Part shown: positions 14,883-40,733 of the stretch, piece after piece | Numbering within the stretch: the first letter of the stretch is position 1 | Layout of the letters: every line of letters begins with the position of its first letter | NCBI GenBank assembly: GCA_964614585.1 | Contig: CAZTLW010000001.1 | Coordinates: 4 to 64,003 of the forward strand | DNA length: 64,000 nucleotides | Origin: an uncultured Acidimicrobiia bacterium | GTDB taxonomy: Bacteria; Actinomycetota; Acidimicrobiia; Spongiisociales; JAENVV01 | Direction of reading: 5' to 3' | Made by a program: the position numbers and the translations under genes | Notes under the pieces: generated by a model | The model's input: the letters and a program-made list of their open reading frames with translations, nothing else | What the model was told of the DNA's origin: nothing | Databases searched by the model: none

Positions 14883-15695
14883 TCAGCCGAGATAGAGGTC
14901 GAGGAGCTCCGTGCCCGCCACGGTCGCCACCCATGCGGCGACGATCATCGGCGGCCCGAAGGCGAGGTGGTCCTTGCGGCCCCGCCGGCGCAACACCAGC
15001 AGCACGATCGCCGCCAACCCGCCGATCAGGAACGAACCGAATATCGCCACGCCCACCGAGCCGAGCGCTTCGAGCGCTCCCACGGTCGGCTGGCGCACCT
15101 GGAAGGCCACGAAGAGGCCCAACAGGAACGAGAGCTTCACGTCCCCGAAGCCGAAGCCGCCCGGTACCGCGAGGGCCAGGACGAGCATCACCGCGAAGTA
15201 GAGCGCTGCCCCGGCGAAGGCCCACCCCAGCCGGTCGGCGGTCGTCGAGGCGAACGACCCGGCCACCAGCAGCAGCGTCGCCACCACGGTCCCCGGGTAG
15301 ACGATGCGATTCGGCAGTCGGTGCGTGTCCAGGTCGGTGAGGATCAGCGCCACCGTCATCGAGAGCGCCCAGAGGTGGGCGGGCAGCTCCCAGCGGAAGC
15401 CGATGAGCAGCGTCGCCGCCGCCCACAGCAGGCCGGTCGCCAACTCGACCGCCGGGTAGCGCCACGAGATCGGCGCCCGGCAGTGACGGCACTTCCCCAC
15501 CAACAACAACCAGCCGACCACCGGCAGCAGGTCGATCGGCCCGATCGCGTGACCGCAGGCGGGACAATGGGAGCGTCCCATCACCGAGCGGCCGAGCGGG
15601 ATCCGGTAGGCCACCACGTTCACGAACGAGCCGGTCGCCAGGCCGAAGAGGCCCATCGCCGTCGGCCAGAACCAGAGGGGCAGGTCGGCGGTCAT
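14883..15695 (-). CDS. pilD: prepilin peptidase PilD (A24 family aspartic peptidase / N-methyltransferase)
   Basis: 270 aa, N-terminal CPACGH...CRHCRAPI zinc-binding cysteines, multiple TM helices, GFGDVKL-type motif. Confidence 0.85.
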   Translation of the reverse strand: MTADLPLWFWPTAMGLFGLATGSFVNVVAYRIPLGRSVMGRSHCPACGHAIGPIDLLPVVGWLLLVGKCRHCRAPISWRYPAVELATGLLWAAATLLIGFRWELPAHLWALSMTVALILTDLDTHRLPNRIVYPGTVVATLLLVAGSFASTTADRLGWAFAGAALYFAVMLVLALAVPGGFGFGDVKLSFLLGLFVAFQVRQPTVGALEALGSVGVAIFGSFLIGGLAAIVLLVLRRRGRKDHLAFGPPMIVAAWVATVAGTELLDLYLG

Positions 15696-16576: not shown

Positions 16577-16600
16577 GGACGGTCTAGCTGATGGGTCGGA

Positions 16601-17101: not shown

Positions 17102-17343
17102 GTTGTCGTACTCCTTTGTTTGCGTATGGGCGTTGGCGCCCCTTCTCCGATGGTGGATATCGGGGCCGGAGCGCCGGTTCTTGAGGACTTTTCTTCGACG
17201 CTCCGTGGTCGAAGGACCACGCAGCAACCCGACGCGAGACCACGGGATCCGGCATGGGCGCCGGTACCCGATACCCGAGACCGCGCCACGCGCCGGGGCC
17301 CCGACCGATCGGCCGGGGCCCCGTCCGTCGCAGGCGCCAGCGC
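17102..17343 (-). promoter_or_regulatory. pilA2 promoter / leader region (242-bp intergenic)
   Basis: Largest intergenic gap in the pil cluster. SD aggag lies 7 nt before the pilA2 ATG. A separate terminator after pilA2 implies independent, probably high-level transcription of the pilins. Confidence 0.4.
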
Positions 17344-18567
17344 CTACTGGACCAGGTTGACGATGTTGAACATCGGCAGGTAGAGGGCGATGAGCATGCC
17401 GCCGACCACGCCGCCGAGCACCACGATGAGGAGCGGCTCGATGAGGCTCGTGAGCCCCTCGACCATCGTCTCGACCTCGTTGTCGTAGAACTCGCCGATC
17501 TTCTCGAGCATCGTGTCGAGGGCGCCGGTCTCCTCGCCGACGGCCACCATCTGGACGACCATCGGCGGGAAGATCTTCCGCTCGGCCATCGGCTTGGCGA
17601 TCGACTCGCCCTCCGAGACCGAGGCCCGGGAGGCCATCACGGCTTCCTCGACCACGGCGTTGCCCGAGGTCTCCGCCACGATCTCCATGGCCTGGAGGAT
17701 CGGGACACCGCTCTTGGTGAGGGCGGCCATCGTCTGGGCGAATCGGGCGAGTGCGGACTTGTGGATGAGCTTGCCGAAGATGGGCATGCGGAGCTTGATG
17801 CTGTCCCAGGCGTAGCGGCCGCCCTCGGTCTGCTTCCACCGCCGGAACACGACCCAACTCACGATCCCACCGAGGACGGCGACCCACCAGAACGAGGTGA
17901 GGAAGCCCGAGATGGCCAGCAGGATCTGGGTGGGCACCGGCAGCGACGCCCCACCGAGGTCGGCGTAGAGGCCGTCGAACATCGGGACGATGAAGATGAG
18001 CATGGCGGCGGTGATCAGCACCACGAGCACCGCCACGGCCATCGGGTACATCATCGCCGAGCGGATCTTGTTCTTCAGCGCAACCTGGGCCTCGAGCGTG
18101 TCGGCGAGGCGGAGCAGGGAGTCGTCGAGGAGGCCGCCCGTCTCGCCGGATCGCACCATCGAGACGTAGAGCTTGCTGAACACCTTCGGGTGGGCCTCGA
18201 GGGCCTGGCTGAGGCTCTTGCCCTGCTCCACGTCCGTCTTCACGCCGAGGATCACCTCGGCGAGTGTCGTGTTCTCGGTCTGCTCGGCGAGGATCGAGAG
18301 CGCCCGCAGCAGCGAGAGACCCGACGCGATCATCGTGGCGAACTGGCGGCTGAAGACCGCCACCTCCTTGGCGGCCACCCGGTCGGTGATCCCGGGGATG
18401 CGGACCTCGCCGCTCAGCCCCGCCGCATCGGTCTCCTCGAGGGTGACCGGCTTGAGCCCCTTCTGGGCGAGCTCGCGGGCGGCCGCCTCGGCGTTGACGG
18501 CCGACACCTTCCCGTTCTTGACCCGGCCCTTGTCGTCCTGGGCCTTGTAGGCGTATGTCGTGGCCAT
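17344..18567 (-). CDS. pilC: type IV pilus inner-membrane platform protein PilC (GspF family)
   Basis: 407 aa, two GspF-type repeats, ...MMYPMAVAVLVVLITAAML...PILQAMEIVAETSGN... Confidence 0.9.
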   Translation of the reverse strand: MATTYAYKAQDDKGRVKNGKVSAVNAEAAARELAQKGLKPVTLEETDAAGLSGEVRIPGITDRVAAKEVAVFSRQFATMIASGLSLLRALSILAEQTENTTLAEVILGVKTDVEQGKSLSQALEAHPKVFSKLYVSMVRSGETGGLLDDSLLRLADTLEAQVALKNKIRSAMMYPMAVAVLVVLITAAMLIFIVPMFDGLYADLGGASLPVPTQILLAISGFLTSFWWVAVLGGIVSWVVFRRWKQTEGGRYAWDSIKLRMPIFGKLIHKSALARFAQTMAALTKSGVPILQAMEIVAETSGNAVVEEAVMASRASVSEGESIAKPMAERKIFPPMVVQMVAVGEETGALDTMLEKIGEFYDNEVETMVEGLTSLIEPLLIVVLGGVVGGMLIALYLPMFNIVNLVQ

Positions 18568-18577
18568 GGGCTACCTC

Positions 18578-20170
18578 CTAGGCGACGCGTCCGAGCAGGC
18601 GCCGCAGGTCCTCGATGTTGGTGCAGCGCTCGACTGCGGTGTCGAAGTCGATGACGTTCTGGCGGACCAGGTGCGCGAGCGACTGGTCCATCGTCTGCAT
18701 GCCGTGCTTGCCGCCGGCCTGCATCGCGGTGGTGATCTGGTGGATCTTCGCCTCCCGGATGAGGTTCCGGATCGCCGGCGTCGCCAGCATCACCTCGGTC
18801 GCCACCGCCCGCGAGCGGCGGTCACGCGTGGGCAGGAGCTGCTGGGTGACGATCGCCTGGATCGTCGCGGCCAACTGGACCCGCACCTGCGACTGCTGGT
18901 GGCTGGGGAACACGTCGATGATCCGGTCGATCGACTGGGGGGCGTCCTGGGTGTGCAGGGTGGCGAACACGAGGTGGCCGGTCTCGGCGGCGGTCAGCGC
19001 GGTCTGGATCGTCTCGAGGTCGCGCATCTCGCCCACGAGGATCACGTCGGGGTCCTGGCGCAGGGCGTGCTTGAGGGCGGCGCCGAAGTCCATGGTGTCC
19101 GCACCCACCTCGCGCTGGTTCACCAGCGCCCGCTTGTGGGTGTGGACGAACTCGATCGGGTCCTCGATCGTGAGGATGTGGCACGACCGCCGCAGGTTGA
19201 TCTGGTCGATGATCGATGCCAAGGTCGTCGACTTGCCCGAACCGGTCGGCCCGGTGACGAGCACGAGCCCGCGGGGATACTCGGCAAACCCGTCGAGCAC
19301 CTTCGGGAGGCCGAGCTCCCCGAGCGGCTTGACCACCTCGGGGATGGCCCGGAAGACGGCGCCGACGGCGTCGCGCTGGAAGAAGACGTTCATCCGGAAG
19401 CGGGCATGGCCGGGCACGGGGTGGGAAGCGTCGAGTTCGAGCGTGTTCTCCAGCGTCTCGCGCTGCTTCTCGGTGAGGATCGAGTAGATCATGGCCCGCA
19501 ACTCGGCCGGGGTGAGGACGTCGTAGTCCTCCAGCGCCGTGAGGTGCCCATTGATGCGCACGATCGGCTTGGTGCCGGCGGTCAGGTGCAGGTCGGAGCC
19601 GGCCCGTTCGAGCAACTCGAGGAGCAGCGTGTTCGGATGGACCCGGGGGATCTCGTCCTGGCGGGCCGCGGCGATGCGTTCGGCGTCCCCGCCGACCCCG
19701 GGGGGGAGTTCGACGCCGAAGATCCCGTCGATCGCCTTCTCGATGGCTCGCGCCGGGGCGACGGCGACCCGGATGCCACACCCGGCCCGTGCCTCCACCC
19801 GGTCGAGGACCTCCTCGTCGTAGGGGTCGGCGACGGCCACCTTCAGCTCGTTGCCGACCATCTCGATCGGCACGACCTGGAGGGCGCGGCAGGTGTCGGC
19901 GTCGAGGCGGTGGACGATGTCGGGGGCGAAGATGATGCCCTCGAGGTCGACGTACTCGAGGCCCACCCGGGCGGCGAAGACCCGGACGAGGTCCGCCTCG
20001 AGCACCAGGCCCTCGGAGACGACGAGCTCGTCGAACGAGGTGCCGGTCTCCTCCTCGAGGGCGAGCAGTCGCTCGAGTTGGTCGCGCGAGAGGAGACGCT
20101 GGTCGACCAGCAGTTCGCCGAGGGTTCGTGAGTGGTTCGCCATGTCCCGTTGCTCCTTCGTCCGTACCAA
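18578..20170 (-). CDS. pilT: twitching-motility retraction ATPase PilT with N-terminal MshEN/T2SSE_N-like domain
   Basis: C-terminal region carries Walker A GPTGSGKSTT, IEDPIEF, and AIRNLIREAK (PilT/PilU signature). The N-terminal ~170 aa has tandem RTLGELLVDQRLLSRDQLERLL / FDELVVSEGLVLEADLVRVFAARVGL motifs resembling MshEN. Start may be the ATG at 20143. Confidence 0.85.
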   Translation of the reverse strand: MVRTKEQRDMANHSRTLGELLVDQRLLSRDQLERLLALEEETGTSFDELVVSEGLVLEADLVRVFAARVGLEYVDLEGIIFAPDIVHRLDADTCRALQVVPIEMVGNELKVAVADPYDEEVLDRVEARAGCGIRVAVAPARAIEKAIDGIFGVELPPGVGGDAERIAAARQDEIPRVHPNTLLLELLERAGSDLHLTAGTKPIVRINGHLTALEDYDVLTPAELRAMIYSILTEKQRETLENTLELDASHPVPGHARFRMNVFFQRDAVGAVFRAIPEVVKPLGELGLPKVLDGFAEYPRGLVLVTGPTGSGKSTTLASIIDQINLRRSCHILTIEDPIEFVHTHKRALVNQREVGADTMDFGAALKHALRQDPDVILVGEMRDLETIQTALTAAETGHLVFATLHTQDAPQSIDRIIDVFPSHQQSQVRVQLAATIQAIVTQQLLPTRDRRSRAVATEVMLATPAIRNLIREAKIHQITTAMQAGGKHGMQTMDQSLAHLVRQNVIDFDTAVERCTNIEDLRRLLGRVA

Positions 20171-20216
20171 GTGTCGGTCGCCGAGTCGCCTACCTTGAGG
20201 GGCGACTCCGGCCGAC

Positions 20217-21899
20217 TCAGACCGTGACCCGGAGGACCTCCTCGAGGCTGGTGTCGCCCGCGGCCACCTTGCGGAGCCCGTCGACGCGCAGCGGCGTCAT
20301 GCCCTGCTCGAGCGCCTTGTGGGTGAGCGCCTCCGTGGTGGCGTGCTGGACCACCATCCGCTCCACGTCCTCGGTCATCGTCATGAGTTCGTGCACCGCC
20401 ATGCGTCCCCGGTAGCCGGTGCCGGCGCACGCCGTGCAACCCACCGCCCGAAAGATGGTGGCGTTCCCGCCGGGGTCGACCACGGCCGGGTCCCACCCGA
20501 TGCGGTCCAGGGCGTCCTGGGTGGGCTCGTGCGGCTCCTTGCACTTCGTGCACAGGCGCCGGGCGAGGCGCTGGGCGAGCACGGCGTCGAGCGCCGACCC
20601 CACGAGGAACGGCTCCACGCCCATCTCGATGAGGCGGCTGACGGCGGCAGGCGCCGTGTTGGTGTGGAGGGTCGACAGCACCAGGTGACCGGTCAGCGCC
20701 GATTCGATGGCGATGTTGGCCGTCTCGAGGTCCCGGATCTCGCCCACCAGCATGATGTCGGGGTCCTGGCGGAGGAAGGAGCGGAGGGCGTTGGCGAAGC
20801 CGAGCCCCGCCTTGCGGTTGACCTGCACCTGGTTGACACCGGCGAGCCGGTACTCGACGGGGTCCTCCACGGTGACGATGTTGCGCTCGGCGTCGTTGAG
20901 CACGTTGAGGGTGGCGTACAGCGTCGTCGACTTGCCGGAGCCGGTGGGGCCGCACACGAGGATCGTGCCGTAGGGCCGGCGAAACGCGTCCTGGTAGCGC
21001 TCGAGGTTGTCGTGGTGGAAGCCGAGATCGGTGAGGTCCAGCATTGCCGTCGAGTTGTCGAGGATCCGCATGACGACCTTCTCCCCGTAGATCGTGGGGA
21101 GGGTGGAGACACGGAGGTCGACCGACCCGCTGGGGGTCTTCACCGAGATGCGGCCGTCCTGGGGACGACGACGCTCGGCGATGTCGATGTCGGCCATGAT
21201 CTTCAGGCGGGACACCACCCCGGCGAGGAGCCGGCGATTGGTGCGCATCACCTCGTGGAGCACACCGTCGATTCGGTAGCGGACGCGGACGTCGTGGTCG
21301 CCGGGCTCGACGTGGATGTCGGAGGCGCCATCGCTCACTGCTTTGAGGATCACCTGGTTGACGAACTTGACGATCGGGGCGTCCGCGGACGCGGCCTCGA
21401 CCGCGGCCAGGTCCTCCACGTCGATGCCGTCCTCCGACGACCCGACGAAGTCGCTGACGGCGTCCTCGAGCGAACCGAGGCGCTTCACGACCGCATCGAT
21501 GTCGGGCTTCATCGCCACGTGCAGGTCGATCGATCGCCCGGTGGCGGCCTGGATGTCGTCCTTGGCGAGGATGTCGTAGGGGTTGGCGGTGGCGACGAGC
21601 AGCTTCTCGCCGTCGAAGGCGTAGGGGATCGCCTGGTGCTTGCGAGCCAACGGCTCCGGCAGGAGGGCGGCGGCAGCGGGGTCGACGGTGATCTCGCCGA
21701 GGTCGACGAACTGGTAGCCCATGTGCTTGGCGATGACCCGAACGAGCGTCTTCTCGTCGACCAACGACTCCGCCACGACGTACTTGGACAGGGTCATGCC
21801 TGCCGTCTCGGCCGCGTCGGCGGCCGAGTACAACTGGTCGTAGGTGAGCAGGCCCTCCTCGATGAGGACGGCTGCGACACCGGCCTGTTCCTCGGTCAT
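20217..21899 (-). CDS. pilB: type IV pilus assembly (extension) ATPase PilB (GspE family)
   Basis: 560 aa, N-terminal T2SSE_N-like region (LIEEGLLTYDQLYSAADAAETAG), Walker A GPTGSGKSTT, VEDPVEY, tetracysteine CTKC...CTAC motif. Confidence 0.9.
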   Translation of the reverse strand: MTEEQAGVAAVLIEEGLLTYDQLYSAADAAETAGMTLSKYVVAESLVDEKTLVRVIAKHMGYQFVDLGEITVDPAAAALLPEPLARKHQAIPYAFDGEKLLVATANPYDILAKDDIQAATGRSIDLHVAMKPDIDAVVKRLGSLEDAVSDFVGSSEDGIDVEDLAAVEAASADAPIVKFVNQVILKAVSDGASDIHVEPGDHDVRVRYRIDGVLHEVMRTNRRLLAGVVSRLKIMADIDIAERRRPQDGRISVKTPSGSVDLRVSTLPTIYGEKVVMRILDNSTAMLDLTDLGFHHDNLERYQDAFRRPYGTILVCGPTGSGKSTTLYATLNVLNDAERNIVTVEDPVEYRLAGVNQVQVNRKAGLGFANALRSFLRQDPDIMLVGEIRDLETANIAIESALTGHLVLSTLHTNTAPAAVSRLIEMGVEPFLVGSALDAVLAQRLARRLCTKCKEPHEPTQDALDRIGWDPAVVDPGGNATIFRAVGCTACAGTGYRGRMAVHELMTMTEDVERMVVQHATTEALTHKALEQGMTPLRVDGLRKVAAGDTSLEEVLRVTV

Positions 21900-21927
21900 C
21901 GTCGTTCTCCCCAGCCCGGCCCCGGCG

Positions 21928-23190
21928 TCAGTCGCCGAGGGAGCTCAGTTCCTTGGCGAGGAGGCCCTTGGAGCGTCGCCTGAGCAGGTTCGGCAGGCCC
22001 CCGTTGGACTCTTCCTCGACGGCGGGTTCGTCGTCGGCGTCCCCGTCGTCGTCGACGGGCTCGTCGGCGGGCTCGTCGGCGGGCTCGTCCGCGTCCCCGT
22101 CGGCGTCCCCGTCGACCGCCTCGGCGTACTCGCCGGAGGCATCGTCGTCGACGCCCAGTTGAGCGAGCGCGTCCTCTTCGTGCATGGCCGCCACGTCGTC
22201 GTCGATCTCGTCGAGGGCCTCGTCCTGGTCGTCCTCGTCGTCGGCCCGGATGCCGGGCTTGGGGGCGTAGCCCTTGAGGCCGAAGTCGACGCCGGAGTCC
22301 TCGTCGCCGTCGCCCGCCCCTTCTGCGAGCGGGAAGGGCTCGGCGTCCATCAACGGCGGCTCCTCCTCGGGTTCCGGCTCGTCGGTGGCGGCGATGGACA
22401 CCAACTCGTTGGTCCAACCGGTGGGCCCCTCGGCCGACAGCGGGTCCTCGTCGACCTCGACGCCGGGGAACCGGTCCAACCCGCCGGTGGCCCGGCCGGC
22501 CCGGACGTTGTCGCCGACCCAGGCCAGCCCGCGGCTCACGAACGCGGCGACCTTGGAAGCGGCGTCGAACTCGCTCTCGCCGGTGTGCGACGACAGGCGC
22601 TTGACGGTGGTCCCCGACGCGATGAGGCCGAGCAGGGACCATTCGTCCTGGTTCAGCTCGACGAACTCGCTGCCCTCGGGCAGGCTCTCGGCGAGGTGGA
22701 TGCGGGCCGTCATGGACGGCACGATCTCGCGGATGGCGTTCCAGGCCCGGAGCCGCTCGTCGACCTCGTCGAGGGTGTCGTCGATGGAGAGTTCGGTGCC
22801 GAGGCGGATCGAGGTGGTGACGCCCTCCTCGAACTCGAACGAGCCCTGGCGGCGGCGCATGATCTCGACGAAGGCGTCGACCGTGAGGGAGCGGACGGCT
22901 CGGTCGTAGTCGAGCGGCGAGACCTCGTCCGTGAGGAGCTCGTCGGCCGACACGTCACCCGAGGAGACCTGCTCCCAGCCGTCCCGGTCCAACAACCCCC
23001 CACCGACGAGGCGGGACTTCACGGCCCGCTCGTCGCCCGCGCAGGCGAACAGCAGTCGACCGCCCTGCAAGTAGGCCCGCATCTCCTGGTCATCCGCCTT
23101 CACGAGCAACAGGCCCGTCTGTCCCGAGCGGCCGAGCAGGCGCAGGACCTCGGGCAGGGGGAATGAATCCAGGGTGCCCGACAACGCCAT
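21928..23190 (-). CDS. DUF4388 (PATAN-like) domain protein with long acidic C-terminal tail
   Basis: N-terminus MALSGTLDSFPLPEVLRLLGRSGQTGLLLV matches the DUF4388 signature. The C-terminal ~150 aa is extremely D/E-rich. First gene of the pil cluster. Confidence 0.7.
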   Translation of the reverse strand: MALSGTLDSFPLPEVLRLLGRSGQTGLLLVKADDQEMRAYLQGGRLLFACAGDERAVKSRLVGGGLLDRDGWEQVSSGDVSADELLTDEVSPLDYDRAVRSLTVDAFVEIMRRRQGSFEFEEGVTTSIRLGTELSIDDTLDEVDERLRAWNAIREIVPSMTARIHLAESLPEGSEFVELNQDEWSLLGLIASGTTVKRLSSHTGESEFDAASKVAAFVSRGLAWVGDNVRAGRATGGLDRFPGVEVDEDPLSAEGPTGWTNELVSIAATDEPEPEEEPPLMDAEPFPLAEGAGDGDEDSGVDFGLKGYAPKPGIRADDEDDQDEALDEIDDDVAAMHEEDALAQLGVDDDASGEYAEAVDGDADGDADEPADEPADEPVDDDGDADDEPAVEEESNGGLPNLLRRRSKGLLAKELSSLGD

Positions 23191-32752: not shown

Positions 32753-33403
32753 TCAGGTCCAGAGGTCGCGGAACGGGTTGGTGCGGCGCTCGCGGCCGAT
32801 CGTGGTCTCCGGACCGTGGCCGGTGAGGACTCGCACGTCGTCGTCGAGCGACATCACCTCGTTGGCCATCGACGCTGCCAACTGTGGGAGCGAACCACCG
32901 GGCAGGTCGGTGCGACCGATCGACCCGGCGAACAACTGGTCCCCCGAGCAGAGGACGCCCTCGTCGGCGAACAGGAACACGCAATGGCCGGGCGTATGGC
33001 CCGGCGTGTGCCGCACCTCGACGGACAGCCCTGCCACCTCCAGCAGCTGACCGTGGACGAGCTCATGTCGCTCGGTCGGAGCCTCGTAGGAACCCGGCGG
33101 CACCATCCCGAACAGGCCCCGCAGTTGATCGGCCGGATGCAGGGTGAGGAAGTCGTCGGCCGGATGGACGAACGTGGTCATCGTGGGATGGGAGGCCGCC
33201 AGGCCTCCCGAACCGCCCATGTGGTCGACATGCCCGTGGGTGAGTAGCAATGCCTCCGGCCACAGGTCATGGTGGGCCAACAGGGTGTCGATCCCCTCGG
33301 GGTCCGGCGGAGCATCGACCACCAAGCAGGGGCCACTTCGCTCGGGAGCGAGGACCCACGTGTTGGTGGCGGCGAACCAGAGGACGCGATGGTCGACGAT
33401 CAC
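32753..33403 (-). CDS. MBL-fold metallo-hydrolase (hydroxyacylglutathione hydrolase / GloB-like)
   Basis: 216 aa, THGHVDHMGG (HxHxDH motif) ...TPGHTPGH... Confidence 0.8.
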   Translation of the reverse strand: MIVDHRVLWFAATNTWVLAPERSGPCLVVDAPPDPEGIDTLLAHHDLWPEALLLTHGHVDHMGGSGGLAASHPTMTTFVHPADDFLTLHPADQLRGLFGMVPPGSYEAPTERHELVHGQLLEVAGLSVEVRHTPGHTPGHCVFLFADEGVLCSGDQLFAGSIGRTDLPGGSLPQLAASMANEVMSLDDDVRVLTGHGPETTIGRERRTNPFRDLWT

Positions 33404-33424
33404 TCCCGCGAGGCTAGGGACCGC

Positions 33425-35125
33425 TCAGGGGATGGTGGTCGTCGTCACCACTCCCTCGATCCGACCCCACGGCGGGAGTGGGTCCTCCTGCCAGTCCTCG
33501 TAGCGCCACTGGTCGACCAGCAGCGGCCAGAAGGGCGGACGGAGGAAGGCGAGGCGGTCGTCGAACTGGTAGTTGCGGACCGAGAACAGGGCGGAGCCCG
33601 ACATCGCCGACGTGCTCCGCGACGCCCGCGATCCGTGGAAGTCGAGCACCGAGTTGGGCGGGGTCACGCCGTTGCCGCTGTTGCGCCCGCAGGCCCGGGA
33701 GGTGAAGTTGGAGTTGGGGGACTGGCCGAGCCAGGCGACCCAGGTCTCGAGTTCCCGGTCGACCGTCGAGATCGCATACGGGTTGATGGCGATCGACTCC
33801 GAAGCCGCCAACCCGAGGACGTCGGTGAACCCGGTCTCGTTGCTCAGGAGGATGTCGGCGTTGATCGTGATGTTCTTCGAGTCGGCCGACGAACCGGCGT
33901 AGACCGTGAGCCCGCCCTTCATGACGATCTCCTTGAATCCGTCGCCGTTGGAGTCGGTGGCCGACGGGAACCCCCGGTAGCCCATGACGACCGCCTCGTT
34001 GGCCCACACCACCCCGGCGTCGGGGTACTCGACGTCGTCCCACAGGGTCCAGAGGTCGCTGAACGCGCCGGCAGGGGCCGGCGTCGTCGATCCGTTGCGG
34101 CCCTCCTCGGGCAGCGCCGGCTCGGGGTTGAGGATCCACCACTCGTCGCTGTTCAGACAGGAGTTGGTGGGCGGGTTGACCGTCGACTTCCAGATCGCGA
34201 TCCGACCGATGCCGGCGGAGACGTACGGATGGAGCATCCAGGCGGTGGCGTCGGCATCGTCGAGGCAGATGCCGGCCCCGGCGTCACAGGCAACCCCCCG
34301 GATGAGGTCGAGGTCGTCCCAGAAGTTGTTGAAGTCGAGCGGCTCGGGGAACACTTCGCGGATGTCCTCGTGCTCGCCCCGCCCGTCGTACAACACGGCG
34401 TCGTCGCGGACGATCGGCTCGCTGAAGATCTGATCCTCGGCGTAGATGTTGTAGAAGGTCTCGTTGTCCGAGGCGAAGTCGAGGTCGTCCCCGGAATAGA
34501 CGGGACCGTTGAGGATGGCGCCGGACCCGAAGGAGATGTCGCCTTCGGCCACCCGGGCGAACTCCGACAGGGCGGTGGCCCGCACCGACGCCGAGATGGC
34601 CCGACGGTTCACCGAGTCACCGCGCCGGCCGACCACGGTCACCCGCACGGGCTCGCCGTCACCCGGGGGCGCGACCTCCATCATCACGGCCGCGTCCTTG
34701 GATCCGAGGGTGGCGGGGTCGCCGTCCTGGTCGAAGAGCGGGTGCACCCACCAGTCGGGTCGGCCGTCGCCATCGCCGTCGGGAGGATCGACGTAGTCCC
34801 ACGTCCCACACGAGTCGTCCCAGTCCGAGCCGGGGTCGAATGAAACGCCCAGCGAGACGGACGAAACATCGGTGCAGACCCGGGTGCGCTCGGCCTCGTC
34901 CACTCGGTGGAAGTAGTAGGCGGGATCGAGGGTCAGCTTGGTGGCGTAGCGCTCGAGCATGGCCTCCGTCGCCGCGAGGGTGACGTCCTCCTGCTCCTGG
35001 AACGACGCCTGGCGCACCTCGCGCACCGACAACTGGGCGAGGAGCACGGAGAAGCCCATGATGACGGTGCCGATGAGAATGGCGGTGATGAGGGCGGTCC
35101 CCTCGTCGCGACGGAGGTCACGCAT
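33425..35125 (-). CDS. large PilX-like / TadG-like putative minor pilin or pilus-associated protein
   Basis: 566 aa. N-terminus MRDLRRDEGTALITAILIGTVIMGFSVLLAQL resembles PilX_N/TadG N-terminal hydrophobic segments. Large Trp/Asp-rich extracellular region. Confidence 0.55.
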   Translation of the reverse strand: MRDLRRDEGTALITAILIGTVIMGFSVLLAQLSVREVRQASFQEQEDVTLAATEAMLERYATKLTLDPAYYFHRVDEAERTRVCTDVSSVSLGVSFDPGSDWDDSCGTWDYVDPPDGDGDGRPDWWVHPLFDQDGDPATLGSKDAAVMMEVAPPGDGEPVRVTVVGRRGDSVNRRAISASVRATALSEFARVAEGDISFGSGAILNGPVYSGDDLDFASDNETFYNIYAEDQIFSEPIVRDDAVLYDGRGEHEDIREVFPEPLDFNNFWDDLDLIRGVACDAGAGICLDDADATAWMLHPYVSAGIGRIAIWKSTVNPPTNSCLNSDEWWILNPEPALPEEGRNGSTTPAPAGAFSDLWTLWDDVEYPDAGVVWANEAVVMGYRGFPSATDSNGDGFKEIVMKGGLTVYAGSSADSKNITINADILLSNETGFTDVLGLAASESIAINPYAISTVDRELETWVAWLGQSPNSNFTSRACGRNSGNGVTPPNSVLDFHGSRASRSTSAMSGSALFSVRNYQFDDRLAFLRPPFWPLLVDQWRYEDWQEDPLPPWGRIEGVVTTTTIP

Positions 35126-35762
35126 TGCGAAGCCTCACTTCCTCGAGGATCCGGAGGGTGCCTGGGTTCGCCCGGGTGCGCAGCGGTTGGACCCGCAGGT
35201 CGATGGTGATGGCGCCGACGTCACATGACGTGCAGGTGTCGACCGTCGTACGAGTCGAGGAAGCAGAGTCCCAGTCGACGCCCTCGAAGAGCGGCTCGGC
35301 GTCGCTGGCGACGACACCCTCGAGGAGGGTCCGGGCAGGGAGGGCGTCGTCGTCGTCGTAGCTCAACACCGCGGCGGCGGGGTCGACCGGTGGGGTGACG
35401 ACCAAGCGCAGATCACAGAACTGGCCATCGCAGTTGACGAGGTCATAGCGGATGCGGTCCGGCACGCCGTCGCTCGGGGCGACGTCGGCGAACACCGTCA
35501 TCCCGTCCCAGTCGAGATCCACGACCAGGTCGCCCGACCCCGGGTCGGAGGCCTCCCGAAGGTGGATGAGCATCTCGCGCAGGACCACCCGGCTGTCGGA
35601 CTCGGCCTCCGACAGGGCGATCTGGCCCTGCGTGTGGCGGAGGAAGCCCCAGATGATGCCGAACGCGATCGCCAGGGCGGCGGTGGTGACCACCGACGCA
35701 ACGAACGCCTCCATGAGGGTGGTGCCCCGCTCGTCGGCGTGGATGCGGCGGATCAAGGACAT
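35118..35762 (-). CDS. PilW-like putative minor pilin (degenerate prepilin N-terminus)
   Basis: MSLIRRIHADERG|TTLMEAFVASVVTTAALAIAFGII. ATG at 35762-35760; the 84-aa Arg/Gly-rich N-terminal extension of ORF 35118..36014 was rejected. Overlaps the neighbouring start by 8 nt. Confidence 0.5.
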   Translation of the reverse strand: MSLIRRIHADERGTTLMEAFVASVVTTAALAIAFGIIWGFLRHTQGQIALSEAESDSRVVLREMLIHLREASDPGSGDLVVDLDWDGMTVFADVAPSDGVPDRIRYDLVNCDGQFCDLRLVVTPPVDPAAAVLSYDDDDALPARTLLEGVVASDAEPLFEGVDWDSASSTRTTVDTCTSCDVGAITIDLRVQPLRTRANPGTLRILEEVRLRNA

Positions 35763-37372
35763 GAGCTCACCCCCGCAGCATCCGAGTAGCGCCACTCGCC
35801 GAGGGAGACGTAGTTCGCCACCGGGCCCCCGACCCGCACCTCGTTGCACCACCATTCGACTCGCTGGGACACGTACGGTGGGGCGACCCAGGTGTGGTGC
35901 CCGAAGGCATCCGGCTTCGGGTCGATGACGAGGGTGTCTGGCTCCCCGCTGACGTACGTCCGCCACTCGAGGTCGCCCTTGTCGTCGATGTTGTACAGCG
36001 TCCAGTGGCCCCACCCGGCCGGGGGCTCCAGCGTCAGGGCGGTCGGCAGGTCCTCGACGAGCTCCGTGAACGTCTGGGGCACGAGCCCGTTGGTGGGGTC
36101 GACGATCATCTGCACCGGATCGGTCGTGACGGGCAGGTCGATGTCAAGCTTCCCCTCGCCGTCGGCGGTGCCGAACAGGTCGATGCCCGTGCCGAGGAAT
36201 CGAACCTCCACCCAGGGGGCGGGTTGGCCGTCGCGGAGCGTCAGCACGAGCTCGTAGGGGACCGTGGTCGCCTCGGCGAGGGTGAAGTCGACACTCGCCA
36301 CCGTCCCGACCTCGACCTGCTGCGTCTGGCTCTCCTTGCCCGGTGCCGAGGCGGTGATCGAGTACTCGCCGGCGGTGAGCGGCACCCCGGCGTCGAGGGT
36401 GTTGATGTCCACCGTGCCGCCGGTGACCGTGACCGGATACGTGGCGGCCCCGTCATCGACCTCGAGCACGGCGTCGATCGGCGTCGCCGTGTCGTCGAAG
36501 ACGTTGACGGTCAACTGCTCGGCCTTGGTGAGCGTGAGGCTGATCGTGGCGGTGGCGGTCGGCGCCACGTGCGCCCGGTCGGCACCGGACGTCAGGTCGG
36601 CGGGCACGATCATCCAACCGCTGAGGGCGTCGACCGTGTCGCAGGCGGCACCGATCCTGGCCGTGTACCAGTAGTCGGGGAAGGCGGCATCGTCGTTGTT
36701 GGGATCGACGCCGATGAAGACCGACTCGCCGACCGCATCGGGGGTGGCGGTGAACGTGTCGGTGCCGTCGGTCAGACAGACCTGCGGCAGCGGGGTGGTG
36801 TCGGAGGCGAGGATGGCCGACTTCACGAGCTGGACGCGCACGTTGGACAAGCCCTCGTTGGCGGCGATGTCGGGTGGGGCGACGATGGTCTCGAACACCG
36901 TCGGCGAGAGGAGGCGACCGTTGTCGTCGGTGACCGTGATCTCGACGCGCTTGTAGTCGATGCCCGAGTCGTACGACAGCGGGGTGCCGTCACCGGACGG
37001 CGTGGCCCCACCGGGGTCGATGACGTCGAGGCCCGTGGCAGAACCCTCGTAGGTCACCGAGTAGTTGACCGTGAAGTCCCGGCCGTCGATCGAGACGGTG
37101 TCGGTGCTCGGGAACACCCCCAGGGGGACCCCGGCGGTGGTACCCACGTCGTCGTAGTCGACGAGCCGGACCTCCTCGATGAGGGCCTGGCCGAGGTTGG
37201 AGGCCATCGCCTCCACGCGCGCCCGGGAGAGCGAGTTGAGCGACGAGGCGAGCACGGCGGCGCCGAGGGTGAAGATGACGGCGAGCATGGCCAACGCCAC
37301 CATCGATTCGATGATGGAGAAGCCGTCGTCATCCCGGGCCAGCTTCGTGGACGCGCCTCGGTCCACACACAC
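35753..37372 (-). CDS. large PilV-like putative minor pilin with prepilin-type N-terminal cleavage/methylation motif
   Basis: 539 aa. ...KLARDDDG|FSIIESMVALAMLAVIFTLGAAVL: G-FS(I/M)IE motif typical of PilV. Start is GTG (ggaggtgtgtgtgg), exact start codon uncertain. Confidence 0.6.
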   Translation of the reverse strand: MCVDRGASTKLARDDDGFSIIESMVALAMLAVIFTLGAAVLASSLNSLSRARVEAMASNLGQALIEEVRLVDYDDVGTTAGVPLGVFPSTDTVSIDGRDFTVNYSVTYEGSATGLDVIDPGGATPSGDGTPLSYDSGIDYKRVEITVTDDNGRLLSPTVFETIVAPPDIAANEGLSNVRVQLVKSAILASDTTPLPQVCLTDGTDTFTATPDAVGESVFIGVDPNNDDAAFPDYWYTARIGAACDTVDALSGWMIVPADLTSGADRAHVAPTATATISLTLTKAEQLTVNVFDDTATPIDAVLEVDDGAATYPVTVTGGTVDINTLDAGVPLTAGEYSITASAPGKESQTQQVEVGTVASVDFTLAEATTVPYELVLTLRDGQPAPWVEVRFLGTGIDLFGTADGEGKLDIDLPVTTDPVQMIVDPTNGLVPQTFTELVEDLPTALTLEPPAGWGHWTLYNIDDKGDLEWRTYVSGEPDTLVIDPKPDAFGHHTWVAPPYVSQRVEWWCNEVRVGGPVANYVSLGEWRYSDAAGVSSCP

Positions 37373-37456
37373 CTCCGTGTCCTTGTGGTGCGTGTCGGAG
37401 GAATCGAACGCCGACTTGAGAGGTTTCTGCGCGAATCCCTCGCGGCTCCGGGCCGG

Positions 37457-39640
37457 TCAGCGGGCCGGCACCATCCGGTGGACGTCGTAGACACCGTCGA
37501 CACCGCGCACCTCGTCGAGGAGCCGGGCGATCTGGGTCGTGTCCGAGAGTTGGACCTCGTAGCGGAGCCAGGCGATGCGGTCGCCGTCGGTGGCCGACGA
37601 CGAGGCGAGGATGTAGGCATCGAGCCCGGAGATGGCCGACGTCACGTCGCGCAGCAATCCGGTGCGGTCCAGCGCCTCCACCTCGATCCAGACCGAGAAG
37701 AGGCCGGTGGCATCGTCGGACCACGCCACGTCGACCATGCGGCCCGGGTCCATCTGGCCGATGTTGGCGCAGTCGGTGCGGTGGACGGAGATGCCCCGTC
37801 CGACCGTCACGAAGCCCACGAGCGGATCGCCGGGCGCCGGGGCGCAGCACCGGGCCAGGCGCACCATCATCCCGTCCCACCCGTCCACCACGATGCCGGG
37901 CCCCTCGGTCGTCCGCCGGCGGACCGGTGGGGGCGGGGCGAGGAACTCGGACGGCTCCGGCTCGGCCTCCTCGGGACGCACCGCACGCAGGACCCGCGTC
38001 ACCACCATGGCCGGGCTGATCCCACCCTCCCCCACCGCCACGAACATGGCGTCGGCATCCCGGTGGCCCAGGTCGGCCGCCACCTCGGCGAGTACTCGCT
38101 CGCGGGCGGCGTGACCGAGGCCGACACCCTCCTTGCGGAGGAGCTCCAGCACCCGATCCCGCCCGTCGCCCGCGGCCGCCTCCCGCCGTTCCCGCTGGAA
38201 CCACTGCTTGATGCGGGAGCGGGCACGTGACGACGACACGAACTTGGACCAGTCCCGGCTCGGGCCGGCGTCCGACCGTTTGGAGGTGAGGATCTCGACG
38301 ACGTCCCCGGACTGGAGTTCGGTGTCGAGGGGTACGAGCCGCCCGTTCACCTTGGCGCCCACGCACCGGTGCCCGACCTCGGTGTGCACGGCGTAGGCGA
38401 AGTCCACCGGGGTGGCCCCGATCGGGAGGGTCTTCACGTCGCCGGCGGGCGTCACCGCGAACACCTCGTCCCGGTACAGGTCGAGCTTCAGCGACTCGAG
38501 GAACTGCTCGGGGTCGGTCGATTCCTCCTGCAGCACCCGGAGGTCGGCGAGCCAGGGGACGTCGTCGGCGTTGATGCCCTCCTTGTACCGCCAATGGGCG
38601 GCGATCCCGTACTCGGCCCGCTGGTGCATGTCCCACGACCGAACCTGCACCTCGAGCGGCTTGCCGTCGGGGCCCACGACCGTCGTGTGCAACGACTGGT
38701 AGAGGTTGAACTTGGGCATGGCGATGTAGTCCTTGAAGCGCCCGGTCAGGGGCGTCCAGAGGGCGTGCACCTCGCCCAGCGCGGCGTAACAAGCGGGGAG
38801 GTCGGCCGTCACGACCCGGATGCCGATCAGGTCGTAGATCTGCTCGAACGCCTGCCCGGAGTCGACCATCTTCCGCCAAATCGAGTAGTGGTGCTTGGGG
38901 CGGCCGGTCACCTCGGCGTCGACGCCCCGGGCCGCGAGCCGATCCACGATCGCGGCAACCGCCTCGTCGACCACCGCCTGCCGCTGGGGCGCACGCTCGG
39001 CGATGAGCTCGCTGATCTCGTCGAACGGCCCGGGGTGGAGGATCGCGAAGCAGGTGTCCTCCATCTCGTGCTTGATGTCCTGGGCCCCGAGGCGATGGGC
39101 GAGGGGGGCGTACACCTCGAGCGTCTCGGCGGCGATTCGCCGCTGCTTGTCCTCCGGCATCGCGTCGAGGGTGCGGACGTTGTGCAGCCGGTCGGCGAGC
39201 TTGATGAGGATGACCCGGACGTCCTGGGCCATCGCCACGACCATCTTGCGAATCGTGGCGGCCTGGGCCTCCTCCCGCGACTCGAAGCGGATCCGATCGA
39301 GTTTGGTGACCCCGTCGATCAGAGCGGCGACCTCGGGGCCGAAGCGTTCGATCAGCTCACCGAGGTCCACCTCGGTGTCCTCCACGGTGTCATGGAGGAG
39401 CGCCGCCTCGATCGTGACGGCATCGAGGCCGTAGCCGGCGAGGATGAGGGCCACCGCGACCGGGTGGGTGATGTAGGGGTCACCGGTCTTGCGGAACTGG
39501 CCCTCATGGGCGGCGGCCGCCACGTCGTGGGCGCGCCTGATGCCTTCCACGTCGCCGTCGGGATGGTGGCGACGGAACTCGTCGAGCAGGTCGACCAACT
39601 GGGGTGCCCGCCCGACGTCATGGGTCGGCACGGCCGTCAT
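37457..39640 (-). CDS. relA: bifunctional (p)ppGpp synthetase/hydrolase Rel (RelA/SpoT family)
   Basis: HD domain (...HDTVEDT...), synthetase domain, TGS, ACT. ATG at 39640 (MTAVPTHDVG); the longer start at 39766 would overlap secF and was rejected. Confidence 0.9.
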   Translation of the reverse strand: MTAVPTHDVGRAPQLVDLLDEFRRHHPDGDVEGIRRAHDVAAAAHEGQFRKTGDPYITHPVAVALILAGYGLDAVTIEAALLHDTVEDTEVDLGELIERFGPEVAALIDGVTKLDRIRFESREEAQAATIRKMVVAMAQDVRVILIKLADRLHNVRTLDAMPEDKQRRIAAETLEVYAPLAHRLGAQDIKHEMEDTCFAILHPGPFDEISELIAERAPQRQAVVDEAVAAIVDRLAARGVDAEVTGRPKHHYSIWRKMVDSGQAFEQIYDLIGIRVVTADLPACYAALGEVHALWTPLTGRFKDYIAMPKFNLYQSLHTTVVGPDGKPLEVQVRSWDMHQRAEYGIAAHWRYKEGINADDVPWLADLRVLQEESTDPEQFLESLKLDLYRDEVFAVTPAGDVKTLPIGATPVDFAYAVHTEVGHRCVGAKVNGRLVPLDTELQSGDVVEILTSKRSDAGPSRDWSKFVSSSRARSRIKQWFQRERREAAAGDGRDRVLELLRKEGVGLGHAARERVLAEVAADLGHRDADAMFVAVGEGGISPAMVVTRVLRAVRPEEAEPEPSEFLAPPPPVRRRTTEGPGIVVDGWDGMMVRLARCCAPAPGDPLVGFVTVGRGISVHRTDCANIGQMDPGRMVDVAWSDDATGLFSVWIEVEALDRTGLLRDVTSAISGLDAYILASSSATDGDRIAWLRYEVQLSDTTQIARLLDEVRGVDGVYDVHRMVPAR

Positions 39641-39692
39641 GGGCCCATGGTACCGGGGTGATGCCCCTCCCCCGGTGGGGGCGGGCGCCTGT

Positions 39693-40733
39693 TCAGCCAG
39701 GTCGTTGGGGTGGGCGGCGGCGACCACTCGATCGGCCGCTCGGCGGCTTGGCCGACTCGTAGGCACCGGCCGCGTAGGTGCCGCCCTTGCGCCGGCGGGA
39801 CGCGACCTCCGGGCGGGTCGGGTCCTCGCCCCGCCACGCCTTCCAGGAGACGAGGATCGGTGAGGCGAGGAAGATCGACGAATAGGTCCCCAGCGAGATG
39901 CCGACGAAGAGGGCGAGGGCGAACTCCTGCAGGGTGCTGGCGCCGAGGAGCAGGCTGCCGACGAAGAGCAAGCTGCCCACGGGGACCAGGGAGGTCAGGG
40001 AGGTCATGATCGACCGGACGAGCACCTGGTTGATGGAGCCGTTGATCACATCGGCGTACGGCGCCCGTCCCTCGGCGGCCTCGAGGTTCTCGTTGATCGT
40101 GTCATAGACGACGACGGTGTCATAGAGCGAGTACCCGAGGATCGTGAGGATGGCGACGATGGTGGCCGGCGTGACCTCGAAGCGGACCACGGCGTAGACG
40201 CCGGCCGTGATCGTCAGGTCGTGCAGCAGCGCCGTGATGGCGCCGACCGCCATCGGGAACTCGAACCGCCACGAGATGAAGAGGATGACGACGCCGAGGA
40301 ACACGCCGAGCGCAATGAGCGCCTGGCGGGTGATGGCCGCCCCGAAGGTCGGCCCGACCGAGGCGATCTCGGTGTCGGCATTGCTGGCCCCGGCGATCTC
40401 CTCGACCGTGGCGACGAAGACGAGCTCCTCCTCCTCGGTCAACTGCTCGGTGCGTACCCGGAGGTCGGCCCCCTCATCGAGCTCCTCGACCCGCACCTGG
40501 TCGAATCCGGCGGCCACCAGGGAGTCGGTCATCTCCTGGGCCGACACCCCCGCCTCGTTGGGGACGAGGACGGTGGTGCCGCCCGTGAAGTCGATCGAGA
40601 GGTTCAGCCCGAAGATCGCCAGGGCGGCGATCGACAGGATCACCGCCGCCCCCGAGATGCGGTACCAGAGGACCCGTCGACCGATGAAGTCGAACGCCGC
40701 CTGGCCACGCAGGAGTCGGCCCACGGCGCTCAT
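39693..40733 (-). CDS. secF: protein translocase subunit SecF
   Basis: MSAVGRLLRGQAAFDFIGRR... SecF family TM topology. Internal ATG at 40733; 4-nt overlap with the secD stop. Confidence 0.88.
   Translation of the reverse strand: MSAVGRLLRGQAAFDFIGRRVLWYRISGAAVILSIAALAIFGLNLSIDFTGGTTVLVPNEAGVSAQEMTDSLVAAGFDQVRVEELDEGADLRVRTEQLTEEEELVFVATVEEIAGASNADTEIASVGPTFGAAITRQALIALGVFLGVVILFISWRFEFPMAVGAITALLHDLTITAGVYAVVRFEVTPATIVAILTILGYSLYDTVVVYDTINENLEAAEGRAPYADVINGSINQVLVRSIMTSLTSLVPVGSLLFVGSLLLGASTLQEFALALFVGISLGTYSSIFLASPILVSWKAWRGEDPTRPEVASRRRKGGTYAAGAYESAKPPSGRSSGRRRPPQRPG

Follow-up and report, generated by a model that had tools for sequence, protein, structure and literature searches.

A three-gene minor pilin operon in an uncultured Acidimicrobiia bacterium, a candidate tip complex of its type IV pilus

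The three overlapping genes g1, g2 and g3 probably encode the I-, J- and K-class core minor pilins of the type IV pilus (T4P) that is encoded about 10 kb away. The triad is most likely the priming and tip complex of that T4P, with two bulky modules instead of PilY1. The window, the whole stretch of DNA that was analysed, was 64,000 nt of contig CAZTLW010000001.1 (assembly GCA_964614585.1) from an uncultured Acidimicrobiia bacterium. The triad is a known and recognisable kind of system, found here as a lineage-specific version in a new lineage, and it involves no new principle.

The triad and the pil cluster

All three genes are on the minus strand: g1 (35753..37366) encodes a GspI/PilV-class modular minor pilin of 537 aa, g2 (35118..35762) a 214-aa minor pilin that is probably a GspJ/PilW-class subunit, and g3 (33425..35125) a ComZ-like, GspK/PilX-class capping pilin of 566 aa. 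The real start of g2 was ATG 35762, which overlaps the g1 end at stop 35753 by 10 nt, and the g3 start at ATG 35125 overlaps the g2 end at stop 35118 by 8 nt, as the earlier note had described (three overlapping genes, overlaps of 8-10 nt). Shine-Dalgarno (SD)-like sequences were present inside the preceding gene at the overlaps. The g1 reading frame reaches back to the first GTG at 37372 (35753-37372, 539 aa), and a GGAGG was located 5 nt upstream of GTG 37366, which gives 537 aa. The NCBI gene calls for the contig were 537, 214 and 566 aa, identical to g1, g2 and g3. Of the two giant products previously claimed, the one of 566 aa stands, while the figure of 539 aa is obtained only from the first GTG and not from the SD-backed start or the NCBI call. 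GC3 was 0.93 in both triad genes covered by the scan, g1 and g3, like that of the adjoining genes; g2 was shorter than the length cut-off of the scan. A promoter and terminator scan found neither a sigma-70-like promoter nor a convincing terminator bounding the operon, so it may be co-transcribed with relA or the MBL-hydrolase gene.

The main pil cluster, also on the minus strand, extends from ~12355 to 23190, in agreement with the distance of ~10 kb given earlier. It encodes an alignment complex of PilO (~12355-13215, PilO 1.1e-7), a PilN-like protein (13038-13679) and PilM (13664-14746, PilM_2 1.7e-43), followed by the prepilin peptidase PilD (14883..15695, Pfam A24_N_bact 3.4e-31 and Peptidase_A24 1.9e-10), which is the presumed processing enzyme. 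Translations and a motif scan identified two tandem major-type pilin genes (16003-16476 and ~16601-17101) with the motif DEG|FTLIELMVVVLII and an N_methyl match of 8.3e-9. Other genes encoded the PilC platform (17344-18567, T2SSF 1.7e-66), two T2SSE/MshEN ATPases (18578-20170 and 20217-21899, T2SSE 1.5e-140 and 6.9e-45) and a DUF4388 protein (21928-23190, DUF4388 4.9e-16). The window contains a full T4P machinery of the monoderm type, PilD included (PilD, PilB, PilC, PilM, PilN, PilO and two PilA), and prepilin peptidase and assembly machinery are encoded in the same genome as the triad, with the pil genes at 12355-21899.

Besides g3, only the two pilA genes, g1 and g2 carried a prepilin motif in a scan of the window. 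No PilT-type retraction ATPase was recognisable in the window by Pfam scan, and no GspH/FimU-class adaptor pilin gene adjoined the triad. A PilY1-type protein (~1000 aa, with a C-terminal beta-propeller) gave no Pfam or NCBIfam match in g1-g3 or in the scanned ORFs of the pil cluster; unlike PilY1, which is not a pilin, all three triad proteins have pilin N-termini. The earlier note had read g1-g2-g3 as minor pilins, which is supported, and as a second pilus locus, which is not: there was no second machine, and the triad is an accessory operon that encodes pilins only.

Pilin domains and grafted modules

The leader and pilin domain of g1 (residues 1-165, 36872..37366) was the best-conserved segment of the family; the Q, E, G and GDG...K columns of the orthologue alignment were invariant. 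The N-terminal motif is DDDG|FSIIE, the clear prepilin motif previously noted for this protein, and G|F(T/S)xxE, E+5 included, was kept in 37 of 40 clean orthologue extractions. Gly-1 was found in 40/46 extractions, and the remainder had A or were extraction artefacts. TIGR02532 matched g1 above its cut-off. The pilin domain is a small alpha-beta fold superposable on GspI. The size is not that of a single-domain GspI/PilV protein (~120-140 aa), since g1 has 537 aa and the mature orthologues have 497-588 aa; grafted onto the pilin are Ig-like modules and a C-terminal domain. The beta-sandwich modules (residues ~172-365, 36272..36853) include a CarboxypepD_reg/transthyretin-like Ig domain at ~272-365, and CarboxypepD_reg Ig-like modules were present in 42 of 45 g1 orthologues. 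Two Cys flank the C-terminal domain (residues 368-537, 35756..36265), one in ...WWC... and the other in the terminal ...SCP; numbered C493 and C522 on the mature protein, they are near-invariant among 45 orthologues. The 170 residues of this domain were modelled at a pLDDT of ~30, with no usable fold.

For g2, a degenerate motif had been claimed. Its N-terminus reads ERG|TTLME, with both Gly-1 and Glu+5, and these two residues were invariant across 33 family representatives and occurred in 44/44 loci (41 counted automatically and 3 read off the listing by eye). G13, E18, C177, C180 and R212 were invariant in the 33 representatives, and a C-terminal EEVRLRNA was conserved. Judged from its sequence, g2 is a genuine prepilin. 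A g2 profile matched pilin N-termini in the PDB at E 2.6e-4, and matches in the g2 profile searches were limited to the N-terminal helix; likewise, hhalign against E. coli GspG/H/I/J gave an alignment confined to this helix, with the globular domain unmatched. Among the 33 relatives, 18 matched TIGR02532, and weak matches to J-class models were obtained for HpsC (11), Verru_Chthon cassette protein C (9), ComGF (4) and GspJ (3). At every locus the gene was flanked by g1 and g3, and its 214 aa and E+5 are as expected for a J gene product of ~200 aa, which suggests the GspJ/PilW class.

The g3 motif is DEG|TALIT, and the orthologues read G|(F/V/L/A)A(L/M)..(T/V/A) at 51 loci. Gly-1 was conserved in at least 90% of the g3 alignment and E at +5 was found in 0/23 aligned homologues; the absence of Glu5 is expected for the K class. 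The helix aligned with the N-terminus of E. coli GspK (QRG|VALLIV), and Pfam PilX_N reached only E 0.39 on g3 of the window. The N-termini score as class III signal peptides in the family, by TIGR02532 for g1 and 18 of 33 g2 relatives and by pilin N-terminal matches in the PDB, and the leader motifs are conserved in the orthologues, two checks that the earlier note had proposed. In the structure model, g3 has a GspK-like pilin fold, and its secondary-structure elements, in the order helix, five strands, solenoid at 189-530 and long strand at 535-548, fit the ComZ arrangement. The N-terminal helix (residues 8-66) and pilin beta-sheet (to ~188) are encoded at 34562..35125, the ice-binding-protein/tapirin-like beta-solenoid module (residues ~189-530) at 33536..34561, and the C-terminal strand and tail after the solenoid (residues 531-566) at 33428..33535. 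Invariant residues clustered at 57-111, including C84 and C106, and RNYxFDxRLxxLRPPxFPLL was conserved in the tail. The alpha-helical insertion domain of T2SS GspK was not matched, the insert of g3 being an all-beta solenoid; the layout, a pilin domain plus an ice-binding-protein-like beta-solenoid, is collinear with that of ComZ. ComZ was the best structural match by two methods, and the solenoid fold was as near to ice-binding and tapirin-type adhesive domains as to ComZ. g3, whose extracellular region the earlier note had called Trp/Asp-rich, has 18 Trp, 90 Asp+Glu vs 40 Lys+Arg, 6 Lys and a pI of 4.2, and the family was acidic throughout (pI 4.2-5.3). In sequence searches, the view that none of the proteins could be assigned beyond the N-terminus held for g2 and g3; at the level of structure it did not, g3 being ComZ-like and g1 having the CarboxypepD_reg Ig-like domain.

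Distribution, proposed role and alternatives

The triad was intact and its order constant in 52/52 loci from 52 Acidimicrobiia genomes, all of them MAGs. The families are tiny, with 23 and 5 matches among 5.8 billion proteins and, for g2, 46 representatives among 1.84 billion, and wherever a source names the proteins the annotation is uninformative. Junctions in the orthologues were as tight as in the window: the distance from the stop codon to the next Gly-1 codon was 11-44 nt in 34/35 loci and 4-49 nt in 43/46. The usual site was between relA and hisS, in the order relA-triad-MBL hydrolase-hisS. The earlier note had named orthologues in non-pilus contexts, and N-termini that do not score as class III signal peptides, as grounds for refuting its reading; neither check refuted it. 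In some 47 of the 52 genomes the genes next to the triad were these housekeeping genes and no pil genes, but the relA-hisS block and the pil cluster belong to one syntenic region in the window, and in one lineage (GCA_031398745.1) the triad is inside the pil cluster, flanked by pilO and aroC. Some Acidimicrobiia relatives had two distinct triads; the window has a single one.

We propose that the overlapping operon would supply g1, g2 and g3 in fixed proportion and that their N-terminal helices would insert into the membrane. PilD is predicted to cut all three after the conserved Gly. The GspI-like g1 would pair with g2 in the membrane, and g3, GspK/ComZ-like and without Glu5, would cap them. 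This trimer would prime polymerisation of the PilA major pilin below it and so end up at the distal tip. Because nothing could stack above g3, its ~340-residue beta-solenoid and the Ig-like stalk and C-terminal domain of g1 would be displayed at the tip, where they may serve as plug and ligand-binding head, the role of PilY1 in diderms. The earlier suggestion that giant minor pilins could stand in for PilY1 as the tip adhesins of a monoderm agrees with published models of S. sanguinis PilABC (PMC9934059) and of solenoid-bearing PilX/ComZ (PMC6561018; preprint 10.64898/2026.02.12.705559). A surface or polysaccharide is favoured over DNA as the ligand because g3 is very acidic.

The same architecture could instead capture DNA for transformation, with g3 as the equivalent of ComZ on the tip of a competence pilus. 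The structural match of g3 to ComZ favours this reading, as do the binding of DNA by Thermus ComZ and its indispensability for transformation (PMC6561018), and a competence-associated subfamily exists among the cyanobacterial solenoid-PilX proteins (preprint 10.64898/2026.02.12.705559). However, DNA binding by ComZ was mapped to two lysines (PMC6561018), whereas g3 and its family are acidic and g3 is poor in Lys; g3 has no detectable sequence homology to ComZ, its solenoid is equally near to the adhesive domains mentioned above, and comEA, comEC and dprA were not recognised among the scanned ORFs of the window. We consider DNA capture unlikely.

Priming of a short secretion pseudopilus (an Hps-like polysaccharide system or a T2SS-like piston) rather than of a long adhesive pilus is less likely again. 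The I-J-K order and 8-nt overlaps are those of the E. coli gsp operon, and g1 gave weak NCBIfam N-terminal matches to HpsB and XpsI, as g2 relatives did to HpsC and GspJ. These matches span the N-terminal helix only, however, at E 1e-3 to 1e-7 and well below family cut-offs; secretin, GspL and GspC were not found in the window, an outer-membrane T2SS would have no target in a monoderm host phylum, and PilM, PilN, PilO and the major pilins of the cluster are typical of T4aP. It is most improbable that g1-g3 are pilin descendants that act as surface proteins on an uncleaved N-terminal helix and not as pilus subunits. Such a role would suit the usual housekeeping context, and Thermus ComZ has been described without a canonical prepilin site (PMC6561018), but the invariance of Gly-1 and Glu+5 in g2, nearly reached in g1, would be difficult to account for unless PilD cleaves the proteins and they pack into a filament; moreover, the triad is within the pil cluster in one lineage and moves as a strict I-J-K unit.

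On the tip complex reading, three uninformatively annotated proteins acquire a concrete role, and the ComZ/solenoid-PilX architecture reaches a third phylum and an envelope of the monoderm type. The known modular pilins would be joined by an I-class subunit that has an Ig-like stalk. The reading also supports the general view that in systems without PilY1 the tip is formed by bulky modules grafted onto core minor pilins. A literature search found no experimental work on T4P of Actinomycetota, and of Acidimicrobiia in particular, and the triad offers a three-gene target for finding out what the abundant Acidimicrobiia of water and soil adhere to or take in. More tentatively, and with doubt on our part, the tip may be two-headed, with large display modules on both the I- and the K-class subunit, and an entire uncultured class may have it fixed in its core genome. 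Were this true, then together with ComZ and cyanobacterial PilX it would make the solenoid-capped, PilY1-independent tip old and common to Deinococcota, Cyanobacteria and Actinomycetota, and the diverged second triads of some Acidimicrobiia would specify a second pilus type on the same machine.

Comparison with known systems

ComZ of Thermus thermophilus (PDB 6QVI) has been argued to be a tip pilin, and its solenoid was placed between the penultimate and last strand (PMC6561018). In its order along the chain, the tail after the solenoid in g3 is collinear with this layout. Identity was 12-15% in structural alignments with no HMM-level homology, and a profile of 23 g3 homologues recovered no ComZ chain among PDB sequences up to E 10. 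The global TM-score was 0.23-0.27, which means that the two differ in domain orientation and solenoid length. In contrast to ComZ, g3 is strongly acidic; the triad belongs to a monoderm actinobacterium, in which a pilus has no secretin channel to cross, and the Thermus order is pilA1-pilA2-comZ-pilA3, whereas here it is I-J-K.

The E. coli gspI, gspJ and gspK genes overlap by 8 nt and have the same order as the triad. Compared with GspI-GspJ-GspK and PilV-PilW-PilX (PDB 3CI0, 5VTM), the triad has no adjoining H/FimU subunit. Its I subunit bears a graft of ~370 aa, whereas GspI has ~120 aa in all, and its K subunit has a solenoid where GspK has an alpha-helical insert.

In the cyanobacterial PilX proteins (PilX-Com, PilX-EPS and HpsA), an ice-binding-like beta-solenoid is inserted ahead of the last strand, after the penultimate one, as appears to be the case in g3, and this solenoid was proposed to substitute for PilY1 as a plug (preprint 10.64898/2026.02.12.705559). 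They co-occur strictly with a cognate PilV of paired subfamilies, comparable with the triad, and the two distinct triads of some Acidimicrobiia relatives are a further likeness. They belong to another phylum with another envelope, and the likeness was not traced to shared sequence. To our knowledge, tapirins are not pilins and have neither a class III signal nor a pilin domain. g3 was less similar to those of Caldicellulosiruptor (PDB 4WA0, 6N2B, 6N2C) than to ComZ and ice-binding proteins.

PilY1 is absent from monoderms, and Streptococcus sanguinis PilA-PilB-PilC is a tip complex of three pilins, two of them modular (PMC9934059, PMC8179133). As in the triad, a monoderm T4P has three minor pilins encoded in one operon, two bulky and modular and one small, and one subunit is without Glu5. 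The modules differ, being vWA and a ConA-like lectin in S. sanguinis and a solenoid, a CarboxypepD_reg Ig domain and a C-terminal domain in the triad; the I-like subunit is small and Glu5-less in S. sanguinis, whereas g1 is giant and has Glu5. In S. sanguinis PilC a binding module comes after an Ig-like one, an arrangement that g1 appears to share, and the S. sanguinis complex is proposed to be at the tip with its adhesive modules in place of PilY1.

Gene structure and distribution of the triad

Three minus-strand ORFs fill positions 33425-37372 of the window, which has a GC content of about 70%. The earlier note had described three genes with overlaps of 8-10 nt, and both the reading of the DNA and the NCBI gene calls, which give identical products of 537, 214 and 566 aa, confirmed this. 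The first gene, g1, is most likely read from a GTG at 37366 to a stop at 35753 (537 aa), with GGAGG located 5 nt upstream. The length of 539 aa proposed before counts from a GTG at 37372, two codons further upstream. The second gene, g2 (214 aa), starts with ATG at 35762 and shares 10 nt with the end of g1 (stop 35753); g3 (566 aa) starts with ATG at 35125 and shares 8 nt with the end of g2 (stop 35118). All N-termini quoted for g1-g3 were present in the DNA. The GC content of third codon positions was 0.93 in g1 and g3, the same as in the adjoining genes.

The g1/g2 and g2/g3 junctions are tight across the whole family. In E. coli K-12, gspI/gspJ and gspJ/gspK (L059:8975-10908) overlap by 8 nt each, the same arrangement as at the g2/g3 junction of the window. 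Tight junctions and 8-nt overlaps are consistent with coupled, stoichiometric translation. No promoter was found in the scan of the triad. The terminator scan gave one hairpin (34846-34863, minus strand) within the g3 coding sequence, which is probably due to chance because such hairpins were as frequent as expected from shuffled sequence. The plus-strand ORFs 33269-34843 and 35894-38230 failed the codon-position GC filter and were dismissed as the antisense shadows that DNA of 70% GC typically produces; ORF 33573-33902, the only plus-strand ORF of the region to pass this filter, lies antisense within g3 and was likewise dismissed.

The three families are small and lineage-restricted. A search of 5.8 billion proteins returned 23 homologues of g3, the few with a source name being from Acidimicrobiia MAGs, and 5 homologues of g1; a further search, with the g1 alignment as a profile, added nothing new besides one unrelated Ig-repeat protein. 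For g2, 46 representatives were found among 1.84 billion. Scanning one genome per GTDB species identified 52 loci, all from MAGs and labelled Acidimicrobiia or Actinomycetota, except for a few with another or no phylum label. When the window proteins were mapped onto these loci, g1, g2 and g3 occurred together and in that order at every one. The triad was located between relA and MBL-hisS/aspS in about 47 of the 52 and was flanked by other housekeeping genes in two further lineages. In GCA_031398745.1 (locus L004), the order was pilC-pilA-(Wzy_C)-pilD-HTH-pilMN-pilO-(202 aa)-triad-aroC, placing the triad within the pil cluster and thus linking it physically to the pilus machinery in one lineage. 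Since the triad is always together in a fixed order in varied settings, it moves as a unit. At the aroC-side site, where L004:7661-11584 holds the triad, the window (9643-11750, plus strand) instead has an MFS transporter together with an ORF at 9876-11750, also on the plus strand, the C-terminal part of which looks hydrolase-like by eye. This suggests that either the triad or the MFS transporter with this ORF was relocated.

Two orthologues were irregular. The g3 orthologue P0007 (L001/L010, about 10001-11650, on a 1.34-Mb long-read contig) was matched by tblastn in two separate pieces, and after about residue 500 the annotated protein departs completely from the g3 family; it probably carries a frameshift, caused by an assembly error or present in a pseudogene. 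In L013, the g1 orthologue was truncated (226 aa).

N-termini and predicted structures of g1, g2 and g3

As the earlier note had recommended, prepilin cleavage motifs were compared among orthologues and were found to be conserved (the bar marks the predicted cleavage point). For g1, 37 of 40 clean extractions had G|F(T/S)xxE, the exceptions being Ala at -1 in two and Asp at +5 in one. The g2 motif had been called degenerate. This was not so, as its key positions are canonical: Gly-1 and Glu+5 were present at every locus and invariant in 33 representatives, so that G|TTLME of the window is a normal variant. In the same 33 representatives, four Cys and the C-terminal EEVRLRNA are also conserved. 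According to the listed orthologue N-termini and the homologue alignment, g3 orthologues keep Gly-1 and never have Glu+5, with the pattern G|(F/V/L/A)A(L/M)..(T/V/A), which at the sequence level is the GspK/PilX signature; the g3 N-terminus also aligned with that of E. coli GspK in hhalign. TIGR02532 scored above its cut-off for g1 and matched 18 of 33 g2 relatives.

Mature g1 orthologues comprised 497-588 aa, and the large size is therefore a family trait. Of 45 orthologues, 42 matched Pfam CarboxypepD_reg, and some matched Big_1, SdrD_B and SpaA. As the profile search had brought nothing new, the g1 model rests on five sequences; it was partial (pLDDT 60.7, usable at residues 40-365 approximately), and the C-terminal domain failed. 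The last 170 residues, unmodelled in this prediction, are bracketed by two near-invariant Cys. The g1 profile matched E. coli GspI at the N-terminus and not beyond. We conclude that g1 is an I-class pilin that departs from the small single-domain form because it is modular. Some g1 orthologues, P0027 and L003:2532-4112, carry long Thr-rich linkers (TTTTT...), a composition suggestive of O-glycosylated spacers. A Wzy_C/O-antigen-ligase-like TPR protein encoded between pilA and pilD in L004 (1686-3473, minus strand) is possibly a pilin glycosylase.

When aligned by hhalign with E. coli GspG, GspH, GspI, GspJ and GspK, the g2 family matched through the N-terminal helix alone, which did not discriminate the classes. 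Against PDB sequences, the g2 profile matched pilin N-termini (E 2.6e-4), and the g1 and g2 profiles otherwise gave Ig-like and spurious matches. From its size, Glu5, its place between I and K, and weak matches of relatives to J-class models, we infer that g2 belongs to the J class. An H-class subunit was not found alongside the triad.

The g3 model, built from a 23-sequence alignment, is confident (pLDDT 83.3, pTM 0.73). Its N-terminal helix of 60 residues leads into a small beta-sheet, the long stretch from about residue 189 to 530 is all-beta, and a long strand comes last. The model scored 17.2 against Thermus thermophilus ComZ (299 residues aligned), 13.4-14.2 against DUF3494 ice-binding proteins, 8.8-9.9 against tapirin-type domains, 9.2 against GspK and 7.0 against XcpX. 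ComZ was also the sole significant Foldseek match in the PDB (E 4.6e-7, probability 1.0). The alignment was full-length and collinear with a low global TM-score (0.23-0.27), suggesting that the domain orientation of the g3 model differs from that of ComZ. Sequence homology between g3 and ComZ was not detectable, and the hhalign match of the g3 profile to E. coli GspK was confined to the N-terminus. At the sequence level, g3 belongs to no described family. Conservation of g3 peaks at the helix end and the sheet start, while solenoid residues 331-390 are the most variable stretch, with many indels. This pattern fits a conserved assembly interface bearing a diversifying exposed module. The earlier view that none of the three proteins is assignable beyond the N-terminus holds for g2, whose profile comparisons reach the helix only, and had to be revised for g1 and g3, which are assignable by structure.

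Pilus genes in the window

The triad is flanked by relA (37457-39766) on one side and by an MBL-fold hydrolase gene (32753-33403), followed by hisS and aspS, on the other. A complete monoderm-style T4P cluster was annotated between aroE and aroC, about 10 kb from the triad. It encodes a DUF4388 protein (21928-23190, minus strand) upstream of PilB, a second PilB-like ATPase adjoining PilB (18578-20170, minus strand; 530 aa, T2SSE and MshEN domains), PilC, two tandem PilA paralogues, PilD, PilM, a PilN-like protein and PilO. The two pilA genes (16003-16476 and 16601-17101, minus strand) have near-identical N-termini, DEG|FTLIELMVVVLIIAIL, and may provide one major pilin and one adaptor, or a heteropolymeric pilus. 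No PilT-type retraction ATPase was recognised in the window, and Rfam and tRNA scans of it gave no matches. When the window was scanned for prepilin motifs, the matches were confined to g1, g2 and the two pilA genes; ORFs scanned elsewhere in the window were housekeeping genes. Next to pilO lies a 230-aa ORF (11823-12515, minus strand) that has no Pfam match and carries a membrane helix at its N-terminus; its positional counterpart in L004 is an ORF of 202 aa (6992-7600). The 230-aa product is perhaps a T4P component that has escaped recognition, possibly resembling PilP.

Proposed tip complex and comparison with known systems

The interpretation as a minor pilin operon is supported with two corrections, concerning the g2 motif and the assignment of g1 and g3. 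The best-supported reading makes the triad a priming and tip complex of the GspI/J/K type for the T4P encoded nearby. PilD would process the three subunits, g1 and g2 would nucleate the complex, g3, without Glu5, would cap it, and PilA major pilins would polymerise beneath. Exposed at the tip would be the solenoid of g3 and, from g1, the Ig-stalk together with the C-terminal domain; complex formation, tip location and ligand are inferred.

ComZ was reported to bind the GspI-like PilA2 and DNA, and its location at the tip was argued (PMC6561018), and the triad might likewise be a ComZ-like DNA receptor. We consider this unlikely, given that g3 is very acidic (pI 4.2, 90 Asp+Glu, only 6 Lys), and for the same reason DNA capture was ranked below surface or polysaccharide adhesion. 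It is quite improbable that the triad is a secretion pseudopilus; a secretin was not found in the window. Slightly less probable still is that g1-g3 are membrane-anchored proteins that do not form part of a pilus.

Several Acidimicrobiia relatives have a second, strongly diverged pilin triad adjoining the first: L002:11620-15580 (659/184/477 aa), L003:6394-8782 (165/171/460 aa) and, on the opposite strand, L006:2046-6470 (777/207/488 aa). As in the first triad, the N-terminus of the first protein reads G|(L/F/M/T/V)..E, that of the second G|..E, and that of the third lacks Glu5. The g3 profile aligned with the K-like protein of the L002 second triad through the N-terminal helix and nothing more. 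The window has one triad only. The two triads of these relatives recall the two core minor-pilin sets of cyanobacteria.

The priming and tip complex proposed here mirrors the Thermus ComZ tip model. In ComZ as described (PMC6561018), a solenoid of the ice-binding type interrupts a GspK-like pilin domain just ahead of its last strand, an architecture that the g3 model appears to share. By analogy with ComZ and solenoid-PilX, which share this architecture, g3 may work alike. The complex also mirrors the S. sanguinis PilABC model, in which three minor pilins, two of them modular, were described and PilY1 is absent in monoderms (PMC9934059), and the proposal that cyanobacterial PilX solenoids replace the PilY1 plug (preprint 10.64898/2026.02.12.705559). 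Among the results listed in our literature search, no paper connected Acidimicrobiia with minor pilins. The combination of a modular I, a small J-like and a solenoid K subunit is a fixed core-genome trait of an uncultured actinobacterial class. The triad is real, conserved and uncharacterised, but Thermus, cyanobacteria and streptococci already provide examples of its underlying logic.
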